DNA from: an uncultured virus (IMG/VR IMGVR_UViG_3300013005_004049)
Taxonomy: Duplodnaviria; Heunggongvirae; Uroviricota; Caudoviricetes
Strand: one strand, 5' to 3'
IMG/VR virus record: IMGVR_UViG_3300013005_004049
Coordinates: 52,198-72,197 of that record
Length of the DNA: 20,000 nt
In this document: in pieces, positions 4,052-20,000 of the stretch
Layout of the letters: each line of letters starts with the position of its first letter
Numbering within the stretch: position 1 is the first letter of the stretch
Made by a program: the position numbers and the translations under genes
The notes under the pieces: model-generated
Told to the model about the DNA's origin: nothing
Databases searched by the model: none
The model's input: only the letters and a program-made list of their open reading frames with translations

Positions 4052-4970
4052 TGTCTAAGATCTTTTCTAGTGCGTTAAAGATTTTTTGATTGTCAAAACT
4101 TTTACTACAGGCCCACTTAACTGCATTTTCGCAAACAAGTTCTCGCACCGGAGGTGTCTGTCTTGCATAACAACCTAAACATTCCACATCGCTGGTCACA
4201 ACAGTAATATCTTTACCAAACTCACCGCTGCGTGTGGGCAGTATTTGCTCTGGCAACAGATGGCTGATCAATGCCACCATTGGTGTGCTAGTGGTGCCAG
4301 CAATATGAAAAGGTCCACTGTCTGGTCCGACAAACGCACGAGCTTTGGAAATTAAATATTGAATTTCTCCAATACTTAATTGTTCAACCAGATCAATATA
4401 ACGATCTGGTTGTGGTGGCACACGAAAATCGTATTTGGCCCCAACTGCCACAACTTTCATGGTAGGATATTTTTCATGCAAGCGAGTGAACATTGAGCTC
4501 CAGATTTCCAAATCAATGTTTTTGTTTTCCCAAGCCCAACGACGCATGTGTACCACAATGTAATCACTGTTGATTTCTTCAATCACTTGATCCACATTGG
4601 ATTTTTCTTCATCTGTGGGAAATATCTCCGGAGAATGGTCAACTGCCAGGCCTTCTTGGCCAAATGCTCTGTACAAGTAACTGTCCACATAGTGACTGGT
4701 CACTTGTTCTTCATAGGCATCATTGAGATTGACATACAAGTCCCAAGGATCTGCTTTTTGCATGTCGTCGGGTTTTACCACTTGACTCACATGAGGATTA
4801 TTATGCAATACATCAGGTTCTTCTGTAACCACTTGCAAAAAAGCATCAGGATGTCTACGACGCAGTTCTCGCAGCACAGGTGTGATCATGACTAGATCTC
4901 CAAGTGCTCTACGACGGTCAACCAGAATTCTAGTTTGGTGACCTCCTTTGTATTCTGTTTTAGCGTACAT
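4044..4970 (-). CDS. glycosyltransferase family 9 (heptosyltransferase-like)
   Basis: RRALGDLVMITPVLRELRR...NNPHV and FVGPDSGPFHIA motifs. Start reassigned from TTG 4997 to ATG 4970. Confidence 0.8.
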   Translation of the reverse strand: MYAKTEYKGGHQTRILVDRRRALGDLVMITPVLRELRRRHPDAFLQVVTEEPDVLHNNPHVSQVVKPDDMQKADPWDLYVNLNDAYEEQVTSHYVDSYLYRAFGQEGLAVDHSPEIFPTDEEKSNVDQVIEEINSDYIVVHMRRWAWENKNIDLEIWSSMFTRLHEKYPTMKVVAVGAKYDFRVPPQPDRYIDLVEQLSIGEIQYLISKARAFVGPDSGPFHIAGTTSTPMVALISHLLPEQILPTRSGEFGKDITVVTSDVECLGCYARQTPPVRELVCENAVKWACSKSFDNQKIFNALEKILDNE

Positions 4971-5673
4971 ATTCGCTTTCTGGATAGTTGTTTTCAAAAT
5001 GCCAACCCGGAGTTTGTTTGCCCGGAGTGTTGGCTATTTCAAACCAAGTTGGGTTAGCACTGCCAATCCAGGCTTCATGGTCGTAACGGAAATTACCGCC
5101 ATCTAGCACTGCTCCGGTGAGCTTGCTAGGAGTGCCCCATGCATACTGCTCTGGAGAAGTTAGAGCAGTGAGTTTTTTGATATAACTGCTCTTGCTCCAC
5201 CAAAAATTACCTGAACTGTGCAACCACGGTTGTTCAATGACATTGGTACCCACTAGGTCGTAGCCACTGTCTAGTTTTTCAACACAGGTACGCCAATTGT
5301 CAATCATCCAGTATTCCATAAAGTTGCGCCAGTCTGTAACGCGGCCGTCGCCCAGCCTACTGAGTCCTTTAAGGTGGAAGTAGAATATATTGTACTCCTC
5401 ATCAGCAGCATCACAGTTGCGCTTGACTAGATCCAGTGTAGGATATTCCCACAAATCTGTTCTGTTGCTGGTATGAATAAATTTTATATTTCTTTCATTG
5501 GCCAGCACATTCTGTGCATCAATAAAATTAAGCTCGTTGCCATTGGTGCACAAAAATACAGTTTCTGCTGTTTCTAACAACTCATGCTCGCTGAGTCTAG
5601 TCAACTGCTCACTCATGAGTTCATGTGCTCCTGGCAAATCGTTTAGGTGCATAAAAATTTTAATCTTGTTCAT
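4960..5673 (-). CDS. hypothetical protein, possibly glycan-related transferase
   Basis: 237-aa ORF within the operon; motifs EYPTL, YFHLKG, SGNFWW. Function inferred from context only. Confidence 0.5.
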   Translation of the reverse strand: MNKIKIFMHLNDLPGAHELMSEQLTRLSEHELLETAETVFLCTNGNELNFIDAQNVLANERNIKFIHTSNRTDLWEYPTLDLVKRNCDAADEEYNIFYFHLKGLSRLGDGRVTDWRNFMEYWMIDNWRTCVEKLDSGYDLVGTNVIEQPWLHSSGNFWWSKSSYIKKLTALTSPEQYAWGTPSKLTGAVLDGGNFRYDHEAWIGSANPTWFEIANTPGKQTPGWHFENNYPESEYVR

Positions 5674-6464
5674 TTTAGTCCTTTATAAACACTTTCAGCT
5701 GTGGCCACTTGGCTACGCTTTTTAATAAGTTCCATGATTTCTGGATTATCTTTTTGATCTTCTCGAGGTACGAATAGTGCTTTGCCTCGATCGCTAGCAT
5801 CCGCAGCTGGATCCGTGACATAGTAAACGGCAAGGCTTTGACGCATGACCCCTGCTGGACAAACAAGGTCCTTGGGTAAGCCATGCCACGAATATTGAGT
5901 CGTGTCAAAGAGCACTGCACGGTTGAATCGATTTTCAACTGTGGTGACCAACTCTTTGGCTCTTGCTGTTTCTGAATCATGACTCCATAACTCCAACCCA
6001 CCTCCCCAGTCCGCACTCCAATCAGGTGTAATGTACACAATTAGATTGTAATGTCTTTCTAATTTTAACTTAGGATGTATGCTGTAGTCAAGATGTATAT
6101 TCAACTTTCCGGCCTGGGTATGAGCATGCCATCCGCCGCCGTGTAGTCCTACATCTGCCTTGACTTCTGTGTTGCCTGTGATTTTGCTCACTATGGTTTC
6201 GAACGCTGTGCTGCACAGATAATGCAAAACAGAGTAAGTGGTAGCAGGAAACTTATCCCAATGATTACAGGCTTTTTTGTTTTCTATGGGATTGTTGTAG
6301 TGTGCATTCCAAACAGGGCTGTCATAATCTGGAAATTCTTTTACCAATTGCTGAACTGTTTCTTGTGTAAAGAAATTGTCCATGACAATATAATTAAACG
6401 GCTTGTTGGCAAGAAACTGTGTTTGTAGTGCTTGCCAATCTCGTTGAGTCAGAATATTATCCAT
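5670..6464 (-). CDS. 2OG-Fe(II) oxygenase (prolyl 4-hydroxylase-like)
   Basis: HLD...HG facial triad, WGGGLELW, FNRAVLF, and a distal R in RQSLAVYY. Confidence 0.85.
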   Translation of the reverse strand: MDNILTQRDWQALQTQFLANKPFNYIVMDNFFTQETVQQLVKEFPDYDSPVWNAHYNNPIENKKACNHWDKFPATTYSVLHYLCSTAFETIVSKITGNTEVKADVGLHGGGWHAHTQAGKLNIHLDYSIHPKLKLERHYNLIVYITPDWSADWGGGLELWSHDSETARAKELVTTVENRFNRAVLFDTTQYSWHGLPKDLVCPAGVMRQSLAVYYVTDPAADASDRGKALFVPREDQKDNPEIMELIKKRSQVATAESVYKGLK

Positions 6465-6471
6465 GCTTTCC

Positions 6472-7197
6472 TTAGTTCACAATTGGAATTCCATTTGGAG
6501 CGATGTTTCCGTAAACACCCACTTGGTCAACTTCGTACACATGCTGTTTGGGAATAGCGTGGTATAGGCAGTGTTCAATGTCAGCATATCCGCCCATGCT
6601 CATGCGTTGTTTCATGTAGTCGCGCCCGGTTTCGTACCAGGCAATCATGTCTGCATGCATGGCTTTGGGCCAGCTGAGTAATCTGCACATGTACTGCATG
6701 TTCAACCCAGTTACTTCAATTGGAAACTGACTGGCCACACTCTTGCCAATTACCACCTTGTCTTTTACTTGTGGTTGATTGTAAAAGTCAATGTCAAATT
6801 TCTCATTGAGCAGATATCTTCCACTCATTTTGAAAATTCTATCTTGATCATCAATTTCGCCAGCATCCTGTAGCGTTCTAAGACTGATAGGAAAAGTAGT
6901 TAGCTCGGTTAGATTCTTTACAACATCCCAATTGTTGTACCAACTTGGATTGTTGTAAATGTAGTTCACTTCGCTGTTGGTAGTGAAATCAATGTACAAA
7001 TCAGCAGCGTCCATGAGTGCTGTTTCCACAGTTGAATGAACACCAGCGCCACTTACTTCATTGACTACAATTTTACAGCCCGGCACACGCTCGCGAAGGC
7101 ATGCAATGGTATCCAGCGTCATGTCGCGACGCTGTTCCCAGGTATAGATACCAAAGCGAGTGTGTACTGCTGATGTTACAATAAAAGTTGTTTTCAT
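6472..7197 (-). CDS. hypothetical protein (FKxSGRY motif; glycan-cluster associated)
   Basis: ATG at 7197 overlaps the rfbB stop (ATGA); motifs FIVTSA, FKMSGRY, DIEH. Confidence 0.55.
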   Translation of the reverse strand: MKTTFIVTSAVHTRFGIYTWEQRRDMTLDTIACLRERVPGCKIVVNEVSGAGVHSTVETALMDAADLYIDFTTNSEVNYIYNNPSWYNNWDVVKNLTELTTFPISLRTLQDAGEIDDQDRIFKMSGRYLLNEKFDIDFYNQPQVKDKVVIGKSVASQFPIEVTGLNMQYMCRLLSWPKAMHADMIAWYETGRDYMKQRMSMGGYADIEHCLYHAIPKQHVYEVDQVGVYGNIAPNGIPIVN

Positions 7198-8225
7198 TTG
7201 CGCAACCAACGATCGTTGATCAGGGTCCAGTCCACTACTTCTTTCACACGCTCAGACAGTTTGATCTTGGGAATCCATCCCAGACTTTCTAGTAGGCCAC
7301 CGTCCAGTGCATAGCGCAGATCATGTCCCGGGCGTGAGCTGTGGAAATCAACCATTTCATACTTGAGCTCTTTGCCTTGTGCTCGTGCAATAATGTGTGC
7401 CAACTCAAGGTTGTCAATTTCTTCTGGACCAACCAAGTTAAACTTGGGACACTTGGCACCGCCGTAGTCGCTTTCGTGCTTGTAGTTTTGCAGTTTTTCC
7501 AAAACAAACATCAGGCCATCAGCCACATCTTTGGCATGAATGTAGTGCCGTGATCCTGCTTGTGTTTTGGTTGGGTCGCTGTGTACAGTAACCACTTCGC
7601 CATCACGCACTTTTTGGATCACCATGGGAATGTATTTTTCCGGATGCTGGCGCTCGCCAAACACATTCATGGTATGTGTGACCACAATAGGCATCTTGTA
7701 GGTGTTTTCAAATGCCACACACAGTTCTTCTGCAGCCGCTTTACTCGCTGAATACGGATTGGTTGAATTGTACCGATCGTACTCTTTGTAGTTCACGCCA
7801 GGAGGTGCTGGACCAAACACTTCGTCAGTTGAGAAGTTGATAAATCGTTCTAGATTGGGCAGGGTTCTAGCCCACTGTAGCAGGTTAACTGTGCCTACCA
7901 CATTGTCCATAACAAACTCCATTGGGTACTCAATGGAACGATCCACATGTGACCCTGCGGCAAGATGCAGTACATAGTGAATGTCTCCAATCATGCCTGA
8001 TGTGAGTGGACTAATTTCTGCTTTGAGATCATGGAACACTGGCTTGACCCGTTTACGAATTTCTGGTGCATGATCCTGCATCATGTCTGCCAGACGATTT
8101 AGGTTTCCACTGAAATCCAATCGATCCAGTGTGACTATGTTCCAGTCAGTTGTGCGTAGAATGCGATCAATAATATGATGCGCAATGAAACCGGCGCCGC
8201 CGGTTATGAGGACATTTTTACTCAA
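7194..8225 (-). CDS. rfbB: dTDP-glucose 4,6-dehydratase (NDP-sugar 4,6-dehydratase, SDR)
   Basis: TGGAGFIA, HLAAGSHVDRSI, STDEVFG, YSASKA and RPGHDLRY. TTG start at 8225 with GGAG SD. Confidence 0.85.
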   Translation of the reverse strand: MSKNVLITGGAGFIAHHIIDRILRTTDWNIVTLDRLDFSGNLNRLADMMQDHAPEIRKRVKPVFHDLKAEISPLTSGMIGDIHYVLHLAAGSHVDRSIEYPMEFVMDNVVGTVNLLQWARTLPNLERFINFSTDEVFGPAPPGVNYKEYDRYNSTNPYSASKAAAEELCVAFENTYKMPIVVTHTMNVFGERQHPEKYIPMVIQKVRDGEVVTVHSDPTKTQAGSRHYIHAKDVADGLMFVLEKLQNYKHESDYGGAKCPKFNLVGPEEIDNLELAHIIARAQGKELKYEMVDFHSSRPGHDLRYALDGGLLESLGWIPKIKLSERVKEVVDWTLINDRWLRK

Positions 8226-8254
8226 TTTGATTCTCCAAAGATCATTGATGCTAT

Positions 8255-8262
8255 TATTTATA
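8255..8262 (-). promoter_or_regulatory. T4-type late promoter consensus
   Basis: Exact TATAAATA on the minus strand ~30 nt upstream of the rfbB start. Confidence 0.6.
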
Positions 8263-8298
8263 GTTGGCATTTTGAGCCAGTGTGTTTTTTAATACGCC

Positions 8299-8327
8299 TT
8301 GCTCTGTACTATTAAATATCGTATACT
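8299..8327 (+). promoter_or_regulatory. sigma70-like promoter overlapping a TAAATA box, upstream of gmd
   Basis: TTGCTC (8299-8304), 17 nt, TATACT (8322-8327); TAAATA at 8313-8318. Confidence 0.45.
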
Positions 8328-8358
8328 CTACTATAGATTATTTTTCAATGGAGATCAA

Positions 8359-9381
8359 GTGAAAAAGGCACTCATCACAGGTATCACTGGCCAAGACGGC
8401 TCTTACCTAGCAGAACTACTGTTAGAAAAAGGCTACGAAGTTCATGGACTGGTGCGCCGCAATTCAAATTTTGAAATCATTCCCAACATACAACATATCC
8501 GTAATCAAATAACTTTGCACTACGGTGATCTAACTGACAGTGGTAATCTTCGTAACATCATGCTGCGAGTACGCCCAGACGAAGTTTATAACTTGGCTGC
8601 ACAGAGTCATGTGCATGTGAGTTTTGATGTGCCAGAGTTCACAGCTGAAACAAACGCAGTTGGTGTGCTCAACATGCTAGAAGCTGTGCGAGCACTACAC
8701 GCAGAACAGCCTGTGCGCTTTTATCAGGCCAGCACCAGTGAGATGTTTGGCAAAGTTCAGGAAACTCCGCAGAAAGAAACCACACCGTTTTATCCAAGAT
8801 CACCGTATGGAGTGGCCAAGGTGTATGGCTACTGGATCACCATAAACTATCGTGAAAGCTACGGATTGCATGCCAGCAACGGCATACTGTTCAATCACGA
8901 AAGTCCTCGCCGAGGCGAAACTTTTGTAACTAGAAAAATCACCAAAGGCATCGCACAGATAGTTGCAGGCAAACAAAAAGAGTCCATTAAATTGGGCAAT
9001 CTTGATGCTGTACGAGACTGGGGTCATGCTCGCGACTTTGTGGAAGGCATGTGGCTGATGCTGCAACAGGACCAGCCCGGAGACTATGTGTTGGCCACTG
9101 GCGAAGGATACACTGTGCGGGATTTTATCAACATGGCCATGGTAGCCAACAATATCAGTTTTGCCTGGTTTGGTAACGGCATCAATGAAAAAGCCATTGA
9201 TTTGGTCACAGGCAAGGTGTTTATTGAAGTAGATGAAAAACTGTATCGTCCTGCAGAAGTAAGCGTGTTGTGCGGTGACAGCAGCAAGGCTCAGCAGCAG
9301 TTGGGGTGGTCAAGAAAATATGACATCGAAGGCCTAATCCGAGACATGGTAGCACATGATCGCGCAGAGGCAGGCCTATGA
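8359..9381 (+). CDS. gmd: GDP-mannose 4,6-dehydratase
   Basis: [56 protein letters not shown] and RDWGHA. GTG start with GGAG SD. Confidence 0.95.
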
Positions 9382-10145
9382 AAGTAGTGATTGCCACTGG
9401 TGGCTTTGACCCCATACATTCAGGACACATTGCATATTTTGAAGCAGCAGCCGTACTAGGTGATATTCTATTGGTTGGATTGAACAGTGACGCATGGCTG
9501 CGCCGCAAAAAAGGGCGTGCATTCATGCCCTATGCAGAACGCAGTGCAATTATAAAGAACCTGCGCATGGTTCATCAGGTGTTGGAACTACAAGACGACG
9601 ACGGGTCTGGTGCCGACGGCATCCGGCAAGCTCGTGCGCTGTACCCAGACGCAGAGATCGTGTTTGCCAATGGCGGTGACCGCAATGCCAGTAACATTCC
9701 CGAAATGGAAATTTTTGCCGATGATGCTAAATTGCATTTTGAATTCAGTGTGGGCGGTGACTGGAAACAAAACAGCAGTCGCTGGATCCTGGATGAGTGG
9801 AAGGCTCCTCGCACAGAAAAACCCTGGGGAGAATACCGACTGTTACACGACTATGGCCCAGAAGCCAAACTCAAAGAACTCACAGTTGATCCAGGCCAAA
9901 GCCTGAGCATGCAACGACATAGCAAGCGTTCGGAGTTCTGGTTTGTTGCAGAAGGGCAAGCAACAGTGTACACTCTTAATCGCAAAACAGATGCAGAACT
10001 AGTGGGTGTGTTTGGTAAACATCAACATATCTGGATCAGTCGAGGTGAATGGCACCAGTTGGCCAACGAAACTGATCAACCACTACAACTGGTAGAAATA
10101 CAGTACGGCGAAGACTGTATTGAAGAAGATATTGAAAGGAAATAA
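9378..10145 (+). CDS. cytidylyltransferase-like (RfaE/TagD) domain fused to type II mannose-6-phosphate isomerase-like cupin
   Basis: N-terminal [10 protein letters not shown] (HIGH) and FANGGDR; C-terminal KPWG...[15 protein letters not shown]...EIQYG. Confidence 0.8.
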
Positions 10146-11312
10146 ATGACTCAATTACGCTGGCCCTTGATGAAGAATGCTGTTACCTGGGGCGACAAAT
10201 ATCAAATGGTAAAATTCTTGCTCACTAGTGATCGCTACACCAATGGACCACGAGTGCGAGAGTTTGAAGCACAATGGGCAGACTGGGTTGGCAGCAAACA
10301 CGCACTCATGGTAAGTTCTGGTTCAACTGCCAATAGTTTGCTGGTCGCGGCTGTTAAAGAAAAACACGGATTAAAAGACGGCGACAAATGTCTAGTACCA
10401 GCTTGTACCTGGGTCACCAACATCAGTCCTGTGTTTCAACTGGGCTTCAATCCCATCTTCTGCGATGTTAATCTAAAGAATTTTAGTTTTGACTTAGAAC
10501 ACATGAAAGCAATTGCAGCAAAGCATCCAGATATAAAACTAATTTTTGTAACTCACCTGCTTGGCTTTCCAGCCGACACTCGTGAGTACCAAAAAATATT
10601 TCCTAACGCTATTATAATTGATGATGTTTGCGAAAGTCACGGTTGTTTAGATGACGATGGCAATAGAGTTGGCGCTAATAGTGTTGCTGCTAGTTTTAGT
10701 TTTTACTTTGGTCATCACATGACCACTATAGAAGGTGGCATGGTAAACACCAATGACAGCGATTTGTACGAACTCATGCGTATGAAACGCAGTCACGGAC
10801 TGGCTCGTGAAAGTGGTAATTTGAAAAAGTATGCTGATCAGTATCCAGAAATACACAGCCAATTTCTGTTTATGACAGATGGTTACAATTTCCGCAGCAG
10901 CGATTTTAATGCTGTACTAGGCATGAGTCAACTCAAACGACTGGACAGTATGATTGAACAGCGCCGTAAAAACTTCGAACAGTTTGTGCATATCATGAAT
11001 GCACATCAAGACAAGTTTTATCCTGTGTACAATGACATTGGCAACAGCAACTTTGCGTTTCCTTTTATTTGTAAAGATCCTGCGTTGACCAAACGCATTA
11101 AAGAAACTTTTGAAAAAAATGGTGTAGAACATCGTCCTATTGTGGGCGGCAACTTGTTGCGTCAGCCGTTTCTTAAAGGTTACAAGTTCGGCGTGCCTAA
11201 GAAAAACAGCAATGTGGATTTGCTCAATGACAACGGTGTGTACATTGGCAACAGTCATTTTGTTGACGGGGAAGACATGGAATGGCTAGCAAACACTTTA
11301 GAAAGCATGTAA
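10146..11312 (+). CDS. colD: DegT/DnrJ-family PLP enzyme, His type: probable GDP-4-keto-6-deoxymannose 3-dehydratase (ColD-like)
   Basis: VSSGSTAN, DVCESHG, and SFYFGHHMTTIEGG with His at the usual Lys position. 388 aa, no E1-type Cys cluster, same operon as gmd. Confidence 0.65.
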   Translation: MTQLRWPLMKNAVTWGDKYQMVKFLLTSDRYTNGPRVREFEAQWADWVGSKHALMVSSGSTANSLLVAAVKEKHGLKDGDKCLVPACTWVTNISPVFQLGFNPIFCDVNLKNFSFDLEHMKAIAAKHPDIKLIFVTHLLGFPADTREYQKIFPNAIIIDDVCESHGCLDDDGNRVGANSVAASFSFYFGHHMTTIEGGMVNTNDSDLYELMRMKRSHGLARESGNLKKYADQYPEIHSQFLFMTDGYNFRSSDFNAVLGMSQLKRLDSMIEQRRKNFEQFVHIMNAHQDKFYPVYNDIGNSNFAFPFICKDPALTKRIKETFEKNGVEHRPIVGGNLLRQPFLKGYKFGVPKKNSNVDLLNDNGVYIGNSHFVDGEDMEWLANTLESM

Positions 11313-11719
11313 TGGAAAAAACCAATCAACTTATGGCACCTATTAGTGTGGGTGAACTCTACGACAAGATCAGTATTTTGGAAATCAAGCTCATGCATGT
11401 GGGCGACAATAGTGCCAAGCGAGTCAACATTGATACAGAACTGGTAGAACTCAAAGAGATTCGTCGCTGCCTTAAACTACCAGATAGTCTAAACAAACGA
11501 GCCGAGCTTGAATCCATTTACGAAGATCTAAAGAAAACCAACCTGGCCATATGGAAAATTGAAGACAATATCCGCAAATGCGAAAAAGATCAAAACTTCG
11601 ATATGACTTTTATTGCATTTGCCAGACAGATATATATTAACAACGACCTAAGAGCTGAAATCAAACGCAAGATAAATGAATTCATGCACAGTCATATCAT
11701 TGAAGAAAAAATTTACTAA
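11312..11719 (+). CDS. DUF6165-like protein
   Basis: APISVGELYDKISILEIK...LKKTNLAIWKIEDNIR...NDLRAEIKRKIN...EEKIY. TAATG overlap with the upstream stop. Confidence 0.7.
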   Translation: MEKTNQLMAPISVGELYDKISILEIKLMHVGDNSAKRVNIDTELVELKEIRRCLKLPDSLNKRAELESIYEDLKKTNLAIWKIEDNIRKCEKDQNFDMTFIAFARQIYINNDLRAEIKRKINEFMHSHIIEEKIY

Positions 11720-12669
11720 TGAAAAAGATTTGCTTTTATAATCACTGGCACAACGGAGATGTTTTTAGTGGCAAAGGCTACATGCTAGACATCATGCAAC
11801 AACTTGGTCCTAGATATGAATTTTCTCATGCCCAACTTAACAGTACAAAAAGCATGCGCGACTTGCCTTGTGAACACATTCACACAGACCAACTACCACC
11901 TCAGGTCACTGCTCACATGCGCTATATTGATGTAAATGGTACATTTTACATCAATACCTGGGTAGGAGCCTACGGCAATGCTGTTATTCCGCAGGGAGAA
12001 CATCATGCCAATTGGCCCAGTTTGCTTACCATGTGGACACACATCATGGAAGTGATCAAATTGAATCTTGCTCCAGAACTATCTATGCCAGGCGATCAGG
12101 GCCAAGTGGACATCAGCCGTTACATTCCCAGCACAGACTGGACGCCGTATGATACAGGACCGGCTGTGGAATTTTTAAGTGGGAAAAATCGTGTGGCATT
12201 GTTTTGTAACGGGCTGGTGCGTAGCACTCAAAGCCATATTGGCCTAATGGAAGATGTACTAGAACAACTGTGTGCAGACTACAAAGACATTGCCTTTGTT
12301 TGCACTTCAAAATTTGACAACACTTTCAATGCACCCAATCTGTATTTCACAGATGATATTTTTGCCAATGTACAAGAAGGCGACATCAATGAAATAGCTT
12401 TTCTAAGCACCAGATGCGAACTCATAGTTGGTAAAAACTCTGGACCGTTTATGTTTGCACACCTTAAAGAAAATGTGTTTGACCCAAATAAAACTTTTTT
12501 TAGTTTAAGTCATCGCCCCAGCGACAGTTATGCATACAATGTAAGCGGTCTACCTTGTCGTTATTATCATTACAGTGAAGAAGCTGGCGCATCAATTGTG
12601 GGTCATTTGCGCAGGGCTATAGACGAAAAGGGCTTGCCAAGCCCTAGACAAATGATAGTGCTAGATTAA
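11719..12669 (+). CDS. divergent GT-B/GT9-like glycosyltransferase (putative)
   Basis: N-terminal HNGDV and C-terminal LIVGKNSGPF echo the GT9 GD and DSGP motifs; last gene of the sugar operon. Confidence 0.45.
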   Translation: MKKICFYNHWHNGDVFSGKGYMLDIMQQLGPRYEFSHAQLNSTKSMRDLPCEHIHTDQLPPQVTAHMRYIDVNGTFYINTWVGAYGNAVIPQGEHHANWPSLLTMWTHIMEVIKLNLAPELSMPGDQGQVDISRYIPSTDWTPYDTGPAVEFLSGKNRVALFCNGLVRSTQSHIGLMEDVLEQLCADYKDIAFVCTSKFDNTFNAPNLYFTDDIFANVQEGDINEIAFLSTRCELIVGKNSGPFMFAHLKENVFDPNKTFFSLSHRPSDSYAYNVSGLPCRYYHYSEEAGASIVGHLRRAIDEKGLPSPRQMIVLD

Positions 12670-12825
12670 TTACTCGTCTAGGCCTTTGGCATCAAGGTGC
12701 TGCTTGAGAACACGCATGAGTTTACGACTGGTATCATAAACATACTCGCGAGTTTCGCCGGCTTCGTCACTAACAACCAGAATGTAGCCATTGGCAACTT
12801 TACGAATTTCAAGATTTTCAAACAT
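12670..12825 (-). CDS. small hypothetical protein (51 aa)
   Basis: Hand translation MFENLEIRKVANGYILVVSDEAGETREYVYDTSRKLMRVLKQHLDAKGLDE. GGAG SD; its stop directly abuts the convergent stop at 12669. Confidence 0.75.
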   Translation of the reverse strand: MFENLEIRKVANGYILVVSDEAGETREYVYDTSRKLMRVLKQHLDAKGLDE

Positions 12826-12858
12826 AGTAGTTCTCCAGGAGAGTGAATATGTTTAATT

Positions 12859-15075
12859 TTAACTGTTCTGCTGGTCAAAGTCAACCAGGTATTTCTTCAA
12901 TTCATTCATAACTTCCCAGTCTGGTGTTTGATCAGCATTTTGGTCTAGTGCCCATGCGCACAATTGGGTAGTCACAGGGTAATCGAACCAAGCATGCACA
13001 GTCATGTTGGTCCACAATCTCCAGAGATGCTTGGCTGTGGTCGGCCAGCACTCTAGTTCACGAATACAAGCTTCTCCAGCGGGATCTACAATTAAATCTT
13101 GTTTGAAGTATTTGTCTAAATGTCCTAGCTTGATCAAGTCTACGCCATTTAGTTTGAAACCTTTGATCAGTAGTTGTCTACAACTATAATGATTATGGTC
13201 ACCGCCTGTCCAGAAATGTGTTTTGTCAGCAGGCTGATTTAACAGCATGACCGCAAGGTTACTGTTTGCAGGTAGACTACCAGTAATGGTTATTGTCTGC
13301 GCATGTTCAATCTTTACAATCAAATGCTTGTTGCCAATTTGTATTCCAAGTTCTGGTTGCCATGCAGGATTATCACTTTCAAAATCAACTTCTAGTTCTA
13401 GCAACACTTGATCAGCATTTGCAATCAATGTTTGTTGTAAATCAGCAGGCATGAACACACGATCACCTAACCTGTGGTCCCCTGTGATGTTAGCATGCGT
13501 GTCAAAACTGTAGTTAGGCAATTGAAAAAAATTCATAATTTCTTTTCTCTTGCTACGAATGGTGTTCATCATAAACAACAGTTCATAGTAGTTTCTACTC
13601 ACAGGCAAGTTCAACAAACAACAAACTTCTTGCATGATCATCCTACGGCGTACTCTTTCCAAGTAATGTAGTTCAGGATTAACTCCTGCGGTCCAAAGAT
13701 CACCAAAATCGCCAATGGTCATTTGGTATTCTTGTGTCAAGTCTTCAACTGGTGTGTCATATGCAAACTGATAAGGAGTACCAAGACTAAGTTTCTGCAG
13801 AGTGCCGTCTGCTGCATATCGTTGGTATCTGTGGAACATCAACACAGTATCTAAAAAATCCTGCCAGGTTTCAGTTGGGTATCCACTAAAGAACAGCAAT
13901 ACCGCAGTGATATTGTTTTTGCTGAAATGTTGCATTTCTACATCCAGATCGTCGGTGCTGAATTTCTTTTTCATTTGATTGCGCACACTGTCACTGCCGG
14001 TTTCTACGCCAATGGCAAGTCCTTGTGCACCGGTGGCACCCATGAGTTTATAATATTCAGCCGGTATCTGATGAGCTGGTCTAGTGATATAATGCCCAGT
14101 CCACACCATGTCTTTATCAATTTTGCCTGTGTTTTTGTAATCTGTAACCTTGTTGAGAAAATCCATAAAGGCGGTCATGCTGCCATTGGCCAAACTGTCT
14201 GTGATGTAAAATTCTTTAGCTCCGTACTTGTGGCCAAGATATGCCATTTCATCTGCCACATGATGTCCGTCTTTGAACAAAAACTTAGGCCAAATTTTAG
14301 GCACATCACAAAATGTGCAAGCTCGTACACAACCTTTACTGCCACTGATAGGCAGTGCAGGTTCATGATGCCATGGATAGCCTGCTAGATCATAATCATC
14401 AAAGTCACTGTAGGGAATTTCGTTCATGCGTATGTGTTCAATAGGAGCAGACCATTTTACTGGTTTACTGCCGCCGTTCAACCAATCACGAATAGCTTGC
14501 TCACTGTCTCCTTCAATCACAGCATCAGCAAGTCCTGCTTGTAATATCCAGTCTTTGTAGTAGGTGTCTTGTTGTGCCTCGGGCAATCCAGCTTGTGCTA
14601 TGGCAGCAAGATAGCTTTTTCTGTCAGGGCCAAACAGCGTACTAGTGACTCCTCTTCCGCCGCAGAGAATTTGTACATCAGGCAGGTGTTGTCTTATTGC
14701 TTGTGCCAACAACAAACTGCTCTTGTGGCTCCAATAACTAAACACACTGATACCAACCCAGTCTGGTGCATATTGTTTCAATTTGGCCACACTGAGTTTG
14801 ATCCAGGTGTCAATGTCTTTGCTTTGAGCATCCCCTAGCACAAGATAATGCAAACTGTCAACAGGTTTACTCCATTGACTTGGAATCACCAGTAGTGTTT
14901 GCAGTTCATCATATCTTGATAAATTTCTTTGTGCTACACCGTTGAACAAATCGTATGCAAAATCAAAACATTTGGCTTCATGCCCTTCGCTACGAGCAAT
15001 GCTCTTTAGAATAGCAGGAGCACCGGCCGGATAGTGCAGGCTCCATGCAGGAATGTTGACAAACGCTATCCTCAT
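12859..15075 (-). CDS. B12-binding radical SAM protein with long C-terminal extension
   Basis: N-terminal cobalamin-binding-like domain (P.GAPAILKS, WVGISVF, LCGGR, DAVIEGDSE), SKGCVRACTFC (CxxxCxxC), IGVETGS and GYPTET. Confidence 0.85.
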   Translation of the reverse strand: MRIAFVNIPAWSLHYPAGAPAILKSIARSEGHEAKCFDFAYDLFNGVAQRNLSRYDELQTLLVIPSQWSKPVDSLHYLVLGDAQSKDIDTWIKLSVAKLKQYAPDWVGISVFSYWSHKSSLLLAQAIRQHLPDVQILCGGRGVTSTLFGPDRKSYLAAIAQAGLPEAQQDTYYKDWILQAGLADAVIEGDSEQAIRDWLNGGSKPVKWSAPIEHIRMNEIPYSDFDDYDLAGYPWHHEPALPISGSKGCVRACTFCDVPKIWPKFLFKDGHHVADEMAYLGHKYGAKEFYITDSLANGSMTAFMDFLNKVTDYKNTGKIDKDMVWTGHYITRPAHQIPAEYYKLMGATGAQGLAIGVETGSDSVRNQMKKKFSTDDLDVEMQHFSKNNITAVLLFFSGYPTETWQDFLDTVLMFHRYQRYAADGTLQKLSLGTPYQFAYDTPVEDLTQEYQMTIGDFGDLWTAGVNPELHYLERVRRRMIMQEVCCLLNLPVSRNYYELLFMMNTIRSKRKEIMNFFQLPNYSFDTHANITGDHRLGDRVFMPADLQQTLIANADQVLLELEVDFESDNPAWQPELGIQIGNKHLIVKIEHAQTITITGSLPANSNLAVMLLNQPADKTHFWTGGDHNHYSCRQLLIKGFKLNGVDLIKLGHLDKYFKQDLIVDPAGEACIRELECWPTTAKHLWRLWTNMTVHAWFDYPVTTQLCAWALDQNADQTPDWEVMNELKKYLVDFDQQNS

Positions 15076-15746
15076 TGTGCAATTGTTTCGCTATAGGTCT
15101 TACGACTGGCTAGACTTATTATTTCATTGGGCGTGGTACTGCGCAGTAGCATCACATTTGGATGAACAAATGTGCCTGCAGCCACAGTGGTAAGACTTCT
15201 ACCTGCCTTGCTGCATAAGCCAAAATACACATCCTGTTCCACAGTAACCAAACTGGTTATCAATACCTGTCGTTGTAGCACCACATTGTGCGCAATGTTG
15301 CTTTCGTGCCCAACAATTACATAGTCATATATCAAACTGTGCGCACCTACAACTACTTCTGGTTCAATGGTAGCATACCCATACACCGCAGTGCCCGGAG
15401 CAATTTTAGAATGTTTACTCACACTAGACAAAGGCGATACTAAAGTGGCCAATGGTAGTTGTAGATCTTGCAACAGGCCTAGTTGTCTAGCTCTTTTGAT
15501 TTTATTTCGTGTGCTGGCGGCGTCTGGAGTCCAATTGGTAGCACATATAAACTGGCAGTCTTTGTAAGACTGTAGATCTTCTTCTGTGCCTATTACTGGA
15601 ATATGCTTGTAGTATCCTTGGCCGTGGTAATCATTGTCAATAATGCCAAGTACCTGGATCCCCACACTCTCCGCTAGTTCTTTCAGTTTGTAGATGTTAC
15701 TGTTGGAACCTAAAAATATCAGTGGAAGACTGGTATCATTGTACAT
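15072..15746 (-). CDS. PglD/NeuD-like hexapeptide-repeat acyltransferase
   Basis: N-terminal Rossmann-like GIIDND..IPVIG, ATLVSP, left-handed beta-helix repeats, and the IVGHES His motif. Confidence 0.7.
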   Translation of the reverse strand: MYNDTSLPLIFLGSNSNIYKLKELAESVGIQVLGIIDNDYHGQGYYKHIPVIGTEEDLQSYKDCQFICATNWTPDAASTRNKIKRARQLGLLQDLQLPLATLVSPLSSVSKHSKIAPGTAVYGYATIEPEVVVGAHSLIYDYVIVGHESNIAHNVVLQRQVLITSLVTVEQDVYFGLCSKAGRSLTTVAAGTFVHPNVMLLRSTTPNEIISLASRKTYSETIAQ

Positions 15747-16596
15747 GTTTCAGCACCACCATGGCTGGCTCATAGTGCTCGATCGTGGCACGAGCATCAG
15801 CTGAACACATGGTGCAAATTTTGTTATTTGGTTTGCCAAAGTCGTCTATCAGCGGTTGTAGATCTTCATCTACTCCAAATCCTTTGTACTTCAAGTACTG
15901 CTGCCATTCTGCATTGTCCGACAGTTCATGTATGTTCAATAGGTCACGGAGGTTGGCAATTGGACCGCACTTGTAGATTCTATTTTTGTACAATATTGGA
16001 TCAGCAGGTGCTCCACATGCAGAGTGACTCAACGAAGGATGCTTGCTTTTCCATGGTCGTATGAGTTTAAGAACACCGTGATAGGGCTTGGTAAATCTAC
16101 GCCACATGCTCACAGTTAAAGTAACATCATTGTGTACAAGTTTGATTGGAATATCTTCAACACCACTGGCCACTGCAACCCATTGCGGATCTATATCCAT
16201 TGTTTGTGCAAGCACATCTTTATGCAGTTGTTCTGCAGGAAATCCTTGCAAATGAAAACTAACATCCAATGTTGCATTACCAAGTTCTAGTAGCAACGGT
16301 AGCACCGACACTGTTGTAAGATGCATGCCATTGGTAACTACTTTGATGTGACTGCTAGGAAAATATTGCCGTACCTTGCGTATCCATTCTAGTATGTCTG
16401 GATTAAGCAATGGTTCACCACCGGTGATACCAATGGTGTCCACTGTAAGAACTTTGCTCCATGCACTCAGCCATTCTTCGCCTTCGGCAATACTGACACC
16501 GCCGGTGCGAGGTTGGTCACTCATGGTAACACAGCCAAAGCAGCTGAGGCTGCAACTGTATTGAATCATGATGTCAAGTTTTGGTAATATGTGCAT
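15736..16596 (-). CDS. radical SAM protein with C-terminal Cys cluster (twitch/SPASM-like)
   Basis: CSLSCFGC, TGGEPLL, VTNG; C-terminal C...YKC...CTMC. AGGA SD directly after the tRNA CCA. Confidence 0.85.
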   Translation of the reverse strand: MHILPKLDIMIQYSCSLSCFGCVTMSDQPRTGGVSIAEGEEWLSAWSKVLTVDTIGITGGEPLLNPDILEWIRKVRQYFPSSHIKVVTNGMHLTTVSVLPLLLELGNATLDVSFHLQGFPAEQLHKDVLAQTMDIDPQWVAVASGVEDIPIKLVHNDVTLTVSMWRRFTKPYHGVLKLIRPWKSKHPSLSHSACGAPADPILYKNRIYKCGPIANLRDLLNIHELSDNAEWQQYLKYKGFGVDEDLQPLIDDFGKPNNKICTMCSADARATIEHYEPAMVVLKHVQ

Positions 16597-16609
16597 GTTA
16601 TATTGTCCT

Positions 16610-16684
16610 TGGAGCGGGCGATGGGATTCGAACCCACGACATTCTGCTTGGAAGGCAGAAGCTCTACCACTGAGCTACACCCGC
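16610..16684 (-). tRNA. tRNA-Gly(TCC)
   Basis: GCGGGTG TA GCTC AGTGGTA GAGC T TCTGC CTTCCAA GCAGA ATGTC GTGGG TTCGAAT CCCAT CGCCCGC T CCA: full cloverleaf with encoded CCA. Confidence 0.95.
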
Positions 16685-16693
16685 ATTTTAATT

Positions 16694-16726
16694 TGGTGGG
16701 CTGTGAGAGTTTCTAACTCTCACCCC
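16694..16726 (-). pseudogene. tRNA-like minihelix / tRNA 3'-half remnant ending in ACCA
   Basis: GGG GT GAGAG TTAGAAA CTCTC ACAGCCC A CCA: 5-bp T-stem, degenerate T-loop, 7-nt acceptor strand and CCA, with no D or anticodon arm. Confidence 0.5.
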
Positions 16727-16732
16727 AAATTT

Positions 16733-16882
16733 TTATCTTCCTCGTCCTGTATTCCTCATTACTTTTTGTTGTGGTACTGCCATTTGCGTGGTCTTCATTG
16801 TCTGATTCTTTTGAATCTGTTGATGTGGTGCTTTAGATTCTTTGGTTTTTGGCGTTTTGCTTTTTGAACGAGGATCACCCAT
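16733..16882 (-). CDS. small basic hypothetical peptide (49 aa)
   Basis: Hand translation MGDPRSKSKTPKTKESKAPHQQIQKNQTMKTTQMAVPQQKVMRNTGRGR. AGGAG SD 6 nt before the ATG. Confidence 0.65.
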   Translation of the reverse strand: MGDPRSKSKTPKTKESKAPHQQIQKNQTMKTTQMAVPQQKVMRNTGRGR

Positions 16883-16904
16883 TTTTTTCTCCTATTGGTT
16901 GAAA

Positions 16905-16980
<76 letters not shown>

Positions 16981-16987
16981 GTACATT

Positions 16988-17021
16988 TACTTATCATCCA
17001 ACAAAACGCTACCACTAAATA
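16988..17021. promoter_or_regulatory. back-to-back late-promoter-like boxes
   Basis: Minus strand TAAGTA (16993-16988), 7 nt before tRNA-Gly(GCC); plus strand TAAATA (17016-17021), 5 nt before ATG 17027. Confidence 0.35.
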
Positions 17022-17026
17022 TTGCT

Positions 17027-18160
17027 ATGACCCTATCAAAAGAGCCGTTGTGTCAAGCTCCATTCAAGAACATAAGAATTAGCATGATTGGTACGAACCA
17101 ATCAGTGTACCGTCCTTGTTGTAACTATGTTGATTATAACATTTCACATAAAAATGTCAATGATTATTTGACCAGTGCTGAATTACTTGATCTTAAACAA
17201 CAAATGTTCAAAGAGAATTTACCGTCAGCTTGCAACACCTGTGTACAAGAAGAAGGTCAAAATCAAGTGAGCTTGCGACAGCACATGAATGCCAATAGAA
17301 TTCCATATGGTAACAGCATAGCTCAACTGGAGGTGTTTCCCAGTAATGTGTGTAACTTGCGTTGTTTAATGTGCAACCCTGTGAGTTCTAGTACTCTAGC
17401 AGCGGAATACAAAGCTGTTGGCTGGTTGAGCAATTACGACGAAATTGACACAGTGGATCAAACTCTCAAGGACATTGCAGCACTGCCAGAATTACACACT
17501 GTTAGTTTCATAGGCGGAGAATTTTTCTTGGCCAAAAGAGCAACGGAAATACTCAGTCTAACACGCGAAAGAAAATTAGCAGTTAGACTGGTTACCAATG
17601 GCACCATTGTGTTGCCACAACATCTTGATCATCTGGCTCATATACAAGATCTAGAACTGCAAATCAGTATTGATGCTACTCAACAGGCCTACGAATTCAT
17701 GCGGTATCCTGCAACATGGTCTAAAGTTGATGCCAACATTCGCTTGCTGAAAGCATCATTGCCTCAGGCAAGAATCAACTTTAATTATGTGGTGCAGCCG
17801 CTTAACATAGTGTATTTGGTAAAAACTCTAGAATATGCCAATTCTTTACGCATACCTTTACGCACTACCAATTTACTTGGACCGCTTTGGCTTAACTGGC
17901 ACATTTTGACAGTGCAGGAAAAACAACAAATCTCGTCAACAGTAAAAGCACAATTTAACAATCAGCTGGCACAGAAACAACAGACACATGTGGAAAGCAT
18001 ACTAAGAACCATGGAATCTTGCGAATATCGTGAAGACTATAGACAAGAGTATTGCCGCAGAATGAACACCCTGATGCAACATAGAAAAATCGCGGATAGT
18101 ATTATCCGCGATCATTTCCAGCTGGTCCCAACCTTGGCTGATTTTATTCAGCGTCCTTAG
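17027..18160 (+). CDS. radical SAM protein with N-terminal twitch/SPASM-like Cys domain
   Basis: N-terminal CQAPF...RPCC...CNTC..EE...SLRQ; SNVCNLRCLMC, IGGEFF, VTNGT, ISIDA and YEFMRYP. Confidence 0.85.
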   Translation: MTLSKEPLCQAPFKNIRISMIGTNQSVYRPCCNYVDYNISHKNVNDYLTSAELLDLKQQMFKENLPSACNTCVQEEGQNQVSLRQHMNANRIPYGNSIAQLEVFPSNVCNLRCLMCNPVSSSTLAAEYKAVGWLSNYDEIDTVDQTLKDIAALPELHTVSFIGGEFFLAKRATEILSLTRERKLAVRLVTNGTIVLPQHLDHLAHIQDLELQISIDATQQAYEFMRYPATWSKVDANIRLLKASLPQARINFNYVVQPLNIVYLVKTLEYANSLRIPLRTTNLLGPLWLNWHILTVQEKQQISSTVKAQFNNQLAQKQQTHVESILRTMESCEYREDYRQEYCRRMNTLMQHRKIADSIIRDHFQLVPTLADFIQRP

Positions 18161-18598: not shown

Positions 18599-19030
18599 CT
18601 AGTCGATGATGATTTGTCTACCGGTGTTGATTTGGTTTGCTACTCGTTCCACAATGTAGAACAATGTTGCGTTGACAATAGTTTGTGCCACTGCAAATGC
18701 AAATGCCACACTGTTGTTTTCTGTGATGATAAGTCTTGCCAAAATTGTTGCAACAACAATTACTATGATTCTATATGTAACTGTTTTGACAAAACTGCGC
18801 AGGTAACTTTCTGTTCCACTGTCAGTGCGACGCCAAGAGAATTTGTTCCATATTCTATCGTGTGCGTAGTACATGATTGTGCCAAGTATCACACTGGCTA
18901 TGGCCATGGTTCCAGAAGTGGCTGAGTCTGCACCCAGTGCAAGTGAAATGCAATAAACAGCAATAGTACAAAGAATTCTATAAATTACTGTTTTGGTAAT
19001 GGTTCGTGTGTGCGATTCTTTGACTAACAT
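18599..19030 (-). CDS. membrane protein with two tandem DUF2061-like domains
   Basis: Repeat 1 ESHTRTITKTVIYRI...YYAHDRIWNKFSW; repeat 2 ESYLRSFVKTVTYRI...FYIVERVANQI. GAGGA SD. Confidence 0.75.
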   Translation of the reverse strand: MLVKESHTRTITKTVIYRILCTIAVYCISLALGADSATSGTMAIASVILGTIMYYAHDRIWNKFSWRRTDSGTESYLRSFVKTVTYRIIVIVVATILARLIITENNSVAFAFAVAQTIVNATLFYIVERVANQINTGRQIIID

Positions 19031-19044
19031 AATATCCTCTTGAA

Positions 19045-19250
19045 AGTGTCTGGCTACTGGTCCTCACCAGCCCCGGACTGAGCAGTTACTCTGTCCACTG
19101 CGCTATCTCCTCTGGAAGGGTCGCAAGCCGCCCGCCCACGGCAGTTTGAGTATCCCCTAAAAAGGGACTCTGGGCCAGGTCCGTGTGTGCCCAGCGGTTT
19201 CTATGGTGATCGCCTCCACCCACTTTACTAACAGGAAAGTGTAACCGAGG
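19045..19250 (-). ncRNA. candidate structured non-coding RNA abutting the tRNA-Met 3' end (family not recognised)
   Basis: No ORF in the track; ~58% GC by hand count; at least seven hand-folded stems and a possible pseudoknot (see findings). Confidence 0.6.
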
Positions 19251-19251
19251 T

Positions 19252-19327
19252 TGGTTGCAGAGGCAGGATTCGAACCTGCGATTCCCGGCTTATGAGACCG
19301 GACGGATGACCACTTCCATACTCTGCG
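19252..19327 (-). tRNA. tRNA-Met(CAT), initiator-like
   Basis: CGCAGAG TA TGGA AGTGGTCA TCCG T CCGGT CTCATAA GCCGG GAATC GCAGG TTCGAAT CCTGC CTCTGCA A CCA; C1:A72 mismatch and G11:C24. Confidence 0.9.
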
Positions 19328-19333
19328 TCTGAT

Positions 19334-20000
19334 TTAATCTCGCTTGCTACCAAACAACTGTAGCAAAGCAATAAAAATATTGATAAAATCCAGATACAAG
19401 CTCAGAGCGCCTAGTGTGCGCACCTTGCCATCATCATTGCCGCTGTAGTAGATTTCCTTGAGTTTCTGAACATCGTAGGCAGTGAGTCCTACAAAAATCA
19501 ACACGGCCAACACATTGATTACTTGTGCAAGTACCGGCAATGCTAGCCAGATGTTCACAACACTTGCTATGATGATACCAATCAATCCCACAAACAGGAA
19601 TGACCCCATGCTGGTTAGATCGCGTTTGGTTGTATAGCCCATGATTGCAAAAGTGGCAAACACGCCAGCTGACACCAGAAACGCTGTGATAATGCTGGCC
19701 CCTGTGTACACAAGAAAAATACTGCCCATGCTTAGGCCTTGTGCCACAGCAAATCCAATAAACAACAGGATCAAGGTATTGACACTAAAGCGTTCTGAAC
19801 CAAAACTCATGGCCAACACAAACGCCAGTGGGCTCAGGATGATCAACCAGGTAAGGATGCCGCCTGTGTATAAAAATGGCATCATGCTGGCCAGTCCGGC
19901 TGTGACGCCAGAAATAACCAGAGCTGCTGTCATGCGCATGAACACATCACGGAAAAAGTTCTGCACTCCAGAGTCGACGGTTTCAATTGCTGTAAAAGAA
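19334..20000 (-). CDS. Bax inhibitor-1/YccA family membrane protein (5' end beyond window)
   Basis: Multi-TM protein with GYTTKRDL..MGSFL, FVGLTAYDVQK and GALSLYLDFINIF. The frame stays open past GTG 19966 to the window edge (SFTAIETVDSGVQ). Confidence 0.9.
   Translation of the reverse strand, partial: SFTAIETVDSGVQNFFRDVFMRMTAALVISGVTAGLASMMPFLYTGGILTWLIILSPLAFVLAMSFGSERFSVNTLILLFIGFAVAQGLSMGSIFLVYTGASIITAFLVSAGVFATFAIMGYTTKRDLTSMGSFLFVGLIGIIIASVVNIWLALPVLAQVINVLAVLIFVGLTAYDVQKLKEIYYSGNDDGKVRTLGALSLYLDFINIFIALLQLFGSKRD

Follow-up and report, generated by a model that had tools for sequence, protein, structure and literature searches.

A compact, multiply pseudoknotted RNA gene family associated with the tRNA operons of uncultured lake phages

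Which kind of gene, if any, lies between a tRNA-Met gene and the DUF2061 gene that follows it in an uncultured virus? The DNA analysed here is a 20,000-nt stretch (hereafter, the window) that forms the last 20 kb of the 72-kb IMG/VR virus record IMGVR_UViG_3300013005_004049 (positions 52,198 to 72,197; CheckV completeness 18%). The remaining part of the record codes for a ribonucleotide reductase, a DnaB-like helicase, a primase, an exonuclease and tail-spike-like proteins, and the source virus is therefore a tailed phage. On the minus strand of the window, a Bax1-I family gene (19334-19966), the tRNA-Met gene (CAT anticodon), the element under study, the DUF2061 gene (18599-19030) and a gene encoding a PpiC-type rotamase follow one another. 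The initial annotation, made from the sequence of the window, had proposed that positions 19045-19250 hold a distinct, uncatalogued structured non-coding RNA (ncRNA) of phages, fused to the 3' end of the tRNA gene. We found that the element is real and belongs to a widespread family of uncatalogued RNA genes, seen only in uncultured tailed phages of lakes, and that the multi-pseudoknot fold of this family is well supported and conserved by covariation.

Relatives of the element were found by means of an exact 21-nt pattern taken from their common 3' domain, which matched at least 119 stretches of viral contigs. An alignment of 49 diverse members (A1) was used to build a covariance model, R1, of 205 positions and 33 nested pairs. 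R1 gave a full-length match in all 95 distinct motif-bearing loci with enough flanking sequence (65-197.5 bits), and it also matched 54 of 80 loci that were retrieved independently, through a neighbouring protein. The length of the members ranges from 145 to 243 nt, with a mode of 209 nt. In the window, the proposed coordinates were borne out by the R1 match, which is the only one in the 72-kb record, and by the placement of the tRNA-Met gene by both ARAGORN and Rfam (Table 1). The claim that the element is GC-rich with respect to its surroundings also held, since 200-nt segments over the element contain 56-57.5% GC and those clear of it 37.5-48%, up to position 19799; the GC content climbs to 50% in the final 200 nt of the window.

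Phages that bear the RNA include near-complete genomes of 214-355 kb. Among five large phage genomes, a single R1 copy was present in four and two copies in one; for four of these genomes the estimated completeness is 94-100%, and for one it is 75%. In some phages there is also a diverged second copy (53-54 bits), a few hundred bases away from the first, as observed in locus L126 (767-962, minus strand) and in G005:C1:14315-14506. The second copy in L126 has an altered 3' motif that does not contain the exact 21-nt pattern, and the family is therefore broader than the sample retrieved with it. A scan of viral contigs with the 3' end of the tRNA-Met gene found an identical end in 45 loci, and only one of these, L032, showed a match to the RNA within 600 nt downstream (E 5e-9). 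The RNA of L032 lies behind a tRNA-Asn, not a tRNA-Met, and compensatory changes are visible in it, for example CUGG/CCAG replaced by CUAA/UUAG. Among 185,579 species genomes, a single match to the pattern was obtained, in a Prevotella metagenome-assembled genome; R1 aligned there only over positions 139-200, with 21 bits, and this genome was not accepted as a member.

The family was then compared with catalogues of known RNAs. When the window was searched with the 4227 models of Rfam 15 at the gathering threshold, three tRNAs passed and no other family did; at E values up to 10, nothing credible was found over the element in the segment 18900-19450. Searches on relatives (20 at the gathering score and 20 at E up to 1, corresponding to 33 distinct loci, 7 of which were in both sets) returned tRNA-type hits only, plus one noise hit (26 bits, as compared to a threshold of 140). 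With blastn against 50,697 phage records, neither the RNA of the window nor that of locus L048 gave a match, and when the tRNA was included in the query only tRNA-Met genes were hit. We found no description of the family in print. It may figure among the 8,495 candidate RNAs from IMG/VR that were catalogued in 2023 (PMC10690425); the searchable tables of that source, which do not cover its alignments, lack the six contig numbers tried.

The non-coding nature of the element was assessed in the 95 members. With the six reading frames set in register at the conserved motif, no frame is free of stop codons in more than 5 of the 95 members, and the member lengths are evenly spread over the three classes modulo 3 (33/28/34). 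No conserved reading frame is thus present. The element lies within a tRNA array and includes, in the window, an open reading frame (ORF) of 45 aa (19086-19223, minus strand), so that tRNA genes in decay, or a small gene for a protein, might be envisaged. We give this reading hardly any credence: no tRNA cloverleaf was called on 19043-19251 by ARAGORN or by the Rfam tRNA clan at E up to 10, no frame is kept open, and the substitutions in the helices are compensatory. Four findings would have overturned the initial ncRNA call or its novelty, namely a significant Rfam match, a lack of homologs, a lack of compensatory changes and a conserved ORF; each was looked for, and none was observed.

The layout of the RNA, from 5' to 3', consists of a leader (CCC or CCUC), pseudoknots A, B, PK-E and C, and a near-invariant 3' domain (Table 1). 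Four loop-to-strand pseudoknots tie the hairpins together, and a fifth pairing (PK-D, or leader-L10) connects the 5' leader with the loop of the 3' hairpin. This last pairing changes in a concerted way from clade to clade: CCUC/GAGG in the window, and AUCCC/GGGAU, UUUCC/GGAAA or CCCC/GGGG in other clades. The partners of H8 are also wholly different between clades (CUAGAU/AUCUAG, ACUGUA/UACAGU, UCAGAU/AUCUGA); the 3' strand of this helix sits just 5' of the invariant block and is preceded by an A-rich linker. The two stems of H10 are joined by a conserved internal loop, GG / URG. Every covarying helix is local, with the exception of leader-L10. A longer version of H9 (GGACAGRG/CUCAGUC) was considered and rejected: it would overlap the outer stem of H10, which covaries, and the base preceding GGAC does not covary with the bases that follow GUC. 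Readings of the element as RNase P-like, HDV-like (hepatitis delta virus), group I-like or T-box-like, which had been suggested by eye, were discarded as well, because they have no Rfam support and the order of the helices does not fit. As far as RNase P RNA is concerned, its distinctive character is the P4 helix, which joins conserved regions of the 5' and 3' sides over a long range; no model matched at E up to 10, and the element has no covarying long-range helix besides leader-L10.

Table 1. Coordinates of the RNA element, of its structural parts and of the adjacent genes in the window. "Paired" refers to the fraction of alignment cells that can pair.
Feature	Position	Strand	Evidence or remarks
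tRNA-Met (anticodon CAT)	19252..19327	minus	ARAGORN; Rfam tRNA 55.1 bits, non-standard 1-72 pair marked
Structured RNA gene, about 209 nt, 57% GC	19043..19251	minus	Covariance model R1 match 19043-19252, 145.9 bits, E 9.5e-29, all 205 model positions
DUF2061 membrane-protein gene (neighbour, not part of the element)	18599..19030	minus	Pfam PF09834, E 3e-16
5' leader CCUC, 5' strand of PK-D	19247..19250	minus	Partner GAGG 19062-19065, loop of H10 (last hairpin); covarying across clades
Pseudoknot A	19221..19247	minus	H1 19245-19247 with 19232-19234; H2 19236-19241 with 19221-19226 (CACUUU/AAAGUG), interleaved; H2 95% paired, 3-5 pair types per position
Pseudoknot B	19193..19220	minus	H3 GGUG/CACC 19217-19220 with 19205-19208 (96.9% paired); H4, H3 loop GGCG 19211-19214 with CGCU 19193-19196
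Pseudoknot E	19137..19192	minus	H5 19189-19192 with 19172-19175 (3-bp core 100% paired); PK-E, loop CACGG 19181-19185 with CCGUG 19137-19141 across H6 (80.3% paired, 3-6 pair types)
Hairpin H6	19163-19170 with 19148-19157	minus	Inner stem 84.3% paired
Pseudoknot C	19099..19137	minus	H7 GGG/CCC 19135-19137 with 19118-19120 (78% paired at the columns of the window); H8, H7 loop UGCG 19122-19125 with CGCA 19099-19102
Near-invariant 3' domain	19043..19096	minus	29 of the 31 invariant columns of A1
Unpaired GGACA	19092-19096	minus	3' domain
Short 4-bp hairpin H9, loop AACU	19088-19091 with 19080-19083	minus	3' domain
H10 outer stem	19073-19078 with 19048-19053	minus	Covariation; H10 98.8% paired
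H10 inner stem	19067-19070 with 19057-19060	minus	Covariation
H10 loop UGAGGA	19061-19066	minus	
3' tail ACUUU	19043-19047	minus	

The fold was evaluated statistically on a second, model-guided alignment (A2), in which 49 pairs in 14 helices were scored, including three pseudoknots and the leader-loop pairing. In A2, 89.3% of the cells were paired, as compared to 72.0% in shuffled alignments, and 824 cells were doubly changed, as compared to 265. The covariation score was 0.456, a value that was reached in none of 500 shuffles (0.170), and controls in which the pairing was slid gave at most 0.118. Compensatory changes were present in 38 of the 49 pairs. The strands of the pseudoknots are not aligned by R1, and for this reason an alignment-free test was carried out, in which the duplex energy between windows of the same RNA was compared with that obtained with the windows of other members (44 sequences under 80% identity, selected from the 95; 5000 permutations). 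With the own and the foreign partner, respectively, the energies were -3.82 and -1.98 kcal/mol for H1, -5.61 and -2.44 kcal/mol for H4, -6.03 and -3.08 kcal/mol for PK-E, -3.80 and -2.13 kcal/mol for H8, and -3.96 and -3.24 kcal/mol for leader-L10. For each of these five pairings, none of the 5000 permutations was as good, while between 2115 and 4700 of 5000 were as good for five unrelated window pairs used as negative controls. RNAalifold, run on a plain MAFFT alignment, recovered the 3' hairpins alone.

These data also allowed us to revise the fold drawn by hand in the initial annotation, which comprised 12 pairings, six of which turned out to be conserved in the family and six not. The conserved ones are CACUUU/AAAGUG, GGUG/CACC, the core of CUGGGC/GCCCAG, GAGU-CCCU/AGGG-ACUC, GCG/CGC (which here is part of a pseudoknot) and CUGG/CCAG. 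By contrast, CGGUU/AACCG and UCC/GGA were paired in only 47% and 36% of the cells, and GCCG/CGGC, AGUG/CACU and CAG/CUG were not conserved. The pseudoknot that had been attributed to the 5' CCUC does form, but not with the partner originally indicated: the GAGG in the loop of the first hairpin pairs in 41% of the cells, and it is the last hairpin whose loop supplies the GAGG that actually pairs with the CCUC.

The genomic context of the family was examined in the loci of the 95 members. As many as 224 tRNA genes were found on the strand of the RNA and none on the opposite one. The RNA begins -1 to 10 nt past the 3' end of a same-strand tRNA in 38 of the 95 members, with 14 tRNA species in this position, Thr-UGU being the most frequent, and a same-strand tRNA is found downstream in 81, mostly Met-CAU or Gly-UCC (10 of them within 3-5 nt). 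In the window, the 3' CCA of the tRNA-Met terminates at 19252, one base ahead of the element. The acceptor stem of this tRNA is topped by a C1:A72 mismatch, a hallmark of bacterial initiator tRNAs.

It had been asked whether the homologs follow the tRNAs or the downstream gene. They follow the tRNAs, and the DUF2061 gene was beside no other RNA locus inspected. This bears on the suggestion that the element might be a cis-acting 5' leader or riboswitch of the DUF2061 gene. In the window, the 3' tail of the RNA ends 12 nt before the DUF2061 ATG, just upstream of a Shine-Dalgarno-like AGAGGA, as a leader would. However, a search of viral contigs yielded no relative of the DUF2061 protein, what follows the RNA in most relatives is the same-strand tRNA mentioned above, and the boundaries of the RNA are constant whatever comes next. 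The idea of a cis-regulator was thus dropped as very improbable.

In 54 of the 80 loci retrieved through the neighbouring protein, the 5' end of the RNA lies 5-7 nt beyond the stop codon of this protein, which is conserved, is 203 aa long (for example, L169 2234-2845, plus strand) and belongs to no Pfam or PHROG family. Of the 26 loci with the 203-aa protein and no R1 match, 12 were searched again with filters off, and no RNA was found; the element therefore comes and goes. An own promoter ahead of the gene-linked copies was suspected by eye, and the promoter scan found none; in L169, neither a promoter-like nor a terminator-like site lies beside the RNA. In the window, the sole nearby promoter-like site (19056-19029, minus strand) overlaps the 3' end of the RNA, with hits within 1.4 standard deviations of the shuffle mean, and no terminator-like site adjoins the RNA.

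Other features of these tRNA arrays were observed. Most of the 60-200-nt spacers between the RNA and the next tRNA (for example, L048, L065, L080; L084, L088, L143) can be assigned to recurrent conserved modules, one of about 90 nt closed by a long AU-rich inverted repeat and one of about 130 nt with a hairpin resembling a tRNA T-arm. These modules probably represent additional RNAs of the arrays that have not been catalogued. Beside the tRNA array of L169 are encoded a translation initiation factor IF-1 (4838-5056, plus strand; PF01176, E 3.3e-18) and an RNA polymerase omega/Rpb6-like protein (3285-3512, plus strand; PF01192, E 7.6e-06, just above the cut-off). The initial annotation had described the element as the longest non-coding stretch of the window; the spacer between tRNA-Gly(GCC) and tRNA-Gly(UCC) (16685-16904), at 220 nt, has about the same length, although it contains a lysine-rich ORF of 49 aa (16733-16882, minus strand) with an AGGAG 7 nt upstream, followed by a strong hairpin (fold of the spacer, z -3.5). 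This ORF is a tiny gene within the tRNA operon.

Traces of the locus were found in sequencing runs from lakes. Near-identical DNA was present in 14 lake-water runs and parts of the stretch in 6 metatranscriptome runs. In all four metatranscriptome runs that were compared, a contig covers the element (19049-19260, 19083-19233, 19041-19207 and 19053-19233). The contigs from all four runs carry an A>G change at 19193, corresponding to U>C in the RNA; in this strain variant the G.U pair of H4 becomes G-C, and the pseudoknot is strengthened at this pair. As to the expression of the element, these contigs are only a hint.

On the whole, we lean towards the view that the element is a gene in its own right, specifying a compact ncRNA of about 205 nt with several pseudoknots, which belongs to phage tRNA operons, is excised from their transcripts and acts in trans. 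The RNA would be transcribed within a tRNA/mRNA precursor, which in the window would comprise the Bax1-I gene, tRNA-Met, the RNA and the DUF2061 gene. It may then be freed by the enzymes that mature the flanking tRNAs, that is, RNase P at a downstream tRNA and an endonuclease followed by trimming at the upstream CCA; such a release would fit the flush junctions with tRNAs on both sides. The variable 150 nt at the 5' side might work as a scaffold of four loop-to-strand pseudoknots presenting the near-invariant 3' domain, with the 5' end tied to the loop of the 3' hairpin. A stable particle made of the RNA by itself, or of the RNA and a partner, could act in trans through the invariant 3' domain, and the role of the RNA would most likely be tied to the phage tRNAs and to the takeover of translation; T4 rnaC/rnaD, GOLLD, ROOL and manA occupy the same niche in the genome.

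Several observations weigh against this interpretation. The minimum free energy (MFE) of the copy in the window is -76.5 kcal/mol, as compared to -73.9 ± 4.5 kcal/mol in shuffled sequences (z -0.57), and 56 of 200 shuffles fold as well, so that the near-continuous pairing claimed in the initial annotation is, when judged by energy alone, no better than chance; energy models restricted to nested pairs are blind to pseudoknots, and the MFE test is uninformative on a pseudoknotted fold. The plus strand also folds no better than shuffles (z -0.16). Alignment A2 was fitted to the nested helices and therefore favours them, and the exact 21-nt pattern undersamples the family. Since the RNA follows a protein gene in 54 loci, tRNA processing cannot define every 5' end. 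The contigs from the RNA runs are shallow (depth 2.5-9.4), with neighbouring genes at similar depth; carry-over of DNA into RNA libraries is possible, and the contigs reveal neither the ends of the RNA nor its abundance; contig ends near 19041-19053, and stretches of the window devoid of RNA-run cover, were given no weight. Moreover, one of these contigs crosses the tRNA-RNA junction by 9 nt, which indicates that an uncut junction exists, either as precursor or as DNA.

The fixed 5' boundary lends itself to another explanation. The element might be a new class of large self-cleaving ribozyme, in which PK-D brings the 5' leader of the RNA to the 3' domain and this domain cleaves the chain immediately ahead of the leader, freeing the RNA and trimming the trailer of the upstream tRNA or mRNA. 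Small HDV-like ribozymes located behind phage tRNAs are reported to trim in a similar manner. These theta ribozymes, which are much smaller than the element, have the HDV-like fold, a nested double pseudoknot (P1, P1.1, P2, P3, P4) that is cleaved at the 5' end of P1. The element resembles them in that it may lie directly 3' of a phage tRNA and has its 5' end engaged in a pseudoknot. Furthermore, its 5'-terminal nucleotides covary with a loop inside the most conserved domain, the upstream CCA junction, where present, is close, and the 5' boundary does not move whether a tRNA or a protein gene is upstream. Nevertheless, the order of the helices is unlike that of the HDV-type fold, since the partner of the leader is in a hairpin loop and not after the P3 hairpin, and no self-cleaving family of Rfam matched the window (E up to 10) or 20 relatives (E up to 1). 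The contig that spans the junction also argues against self-cleavage, and protection from exonucleases would explain the 5'-3' closure equally well. We therefore consider a ribozyme unlikely. If it were one, jumbo phages would gain a host-independent maturation of tRNA 3' ends as well as the self-release of the RNA.

The closest parallel in layout is offered by the rnaC (species 1, 139 nt) and rnaD (species 2, 119 nt) RNAs of phage T4, which are likewise placed flush behind a tRNA, on the same strand and within a tRNA cluster. In the T4 annotation, tRNA-Arg (71173-71247), rnaD (71053-71171) and rnaC (70908-71046) share the minus strand, and the two small RNAs close the tRNA cluster; rnaD begins 1 nt after tRNA-Arg and rnaC 6 nt after rnaD. 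To our knowledge, the function of these two RNAs is also unknown. The element is longer than either and multiply pseudoknotted, and it does not have an end resembling a tRNA T-arm, as rnaC does. No homology was detected: with filters off, R1 scored 6.9 bits (E 0.28) on the rnaC/rnaD region (L251 1439-1630), within the noise of 23 chance hits.

GOLLD and ROOL, whose function is likewise unknown, are RNAs of phages or prophages that are rich in pseudoknots and frequently lie close to tRNA islands (PMC12286853). The same source places GOLLD env-38 downstream of a Met-tRNA and describes the 3' region of GOLLD as conserved and the 5' region as variable. Both RNAs form nanocages. They are, however, 600-800 nt long or more, as compared to about 205 nt here, and the element has no match in Rfam. 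In size class and aquatic-phage setting the element recalls manA (RF01745; 192-position model), a short structured RNA of aquatic T4-like phages with sugar-metabolism genes (PMC2864571). The window likewise carries GDP-mannose dehydratase and mannose-6-phosphate isomerase-like genes. The manA model (gathering score 55.2 bits) gave no match at E up to 10 in the 72-kb record and none on 20 relatives, and manA was described in 5' untranslated regions, while the element is found in tRNA operons. As an observation on its own, the region 1117-18160 of the window is a dense sugar-modification cluster, which encodes a GDP-mannose 4,6-dehydratase, an epimerase, a DegT aminotransferase, a mannose-6-phosphate isomerase-like protein, a heptosyltransferase-family protein, a C-methyltransferase and two DUF5672 proteins, together with three radical-SAM proteins.

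The parallel with manA, ROOL and GOLLD raises the possibility of an RNA-only self-assembling particle, in which some of the loop-strand pairings, above all leader-L10, would be formed between copies and give rise to rings or cages. The niche is the same as that of the nanocage-forming ROOL and GOLLD, often close to phage tRNA islands (PMC12286853). Cages are also attributed to manA in a preprint (10.64898/2026.07.01.735769), according to which kissing loops assemble manA RNAs of less than 200 nt into 8-, 10- and 60-mers. The element itself is dense in loop-mediated pairings. On the other hand, a single molecule can accommodate all the covarying pairings, palindromic loops were not noticed, and no homology exists with the manA, ROOL and GOLLD models of Rfam, which gave no match. 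Assembly is accordingly a minor possibility, although one that we rate a little above self-cleavage.

The contrast between an invariant 3' domain and a variable scaffold suggests a conserved macromolecular partner, and a purely inferential reading is that the RNA is a decoy or inhibitor, whose 3' domain would bind a tRNA-directed nuclease or an RNase of the host and thereby shield the phage tRNA supply. The RNA travels with tRNA arrays, and such arrays are known to counter tRNA-cleaving defences (PARIS, retron-Eco7). No tRNA-like feature was found in the element by ARAGORN or by the Rfam tRNA model, and we regard this role as improbable.

Considering the RNA as a stand-alone product of phage tRNA operons, the family acquires a broader meaning. 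Phage tRNA clusters are emerging as hosts of elaborate RNAs of unknown purpose, such as T4 rnaC and rnaD, GOLLD, ROOL and manA. The family described here, which occurs in well over 100 contigs of uncultured lake phages, extends this list with a compact RNA of about 205 nt, whose fold includes five covarying pairings of long or medium range. Because of its small size, strong covariation and invariant 3' domain, this RNA is tractable for self-cleavage assays, chemical probing and cryo-electron microscopy, and work on the family could address what the RNAs of tRNA islands do for phages.

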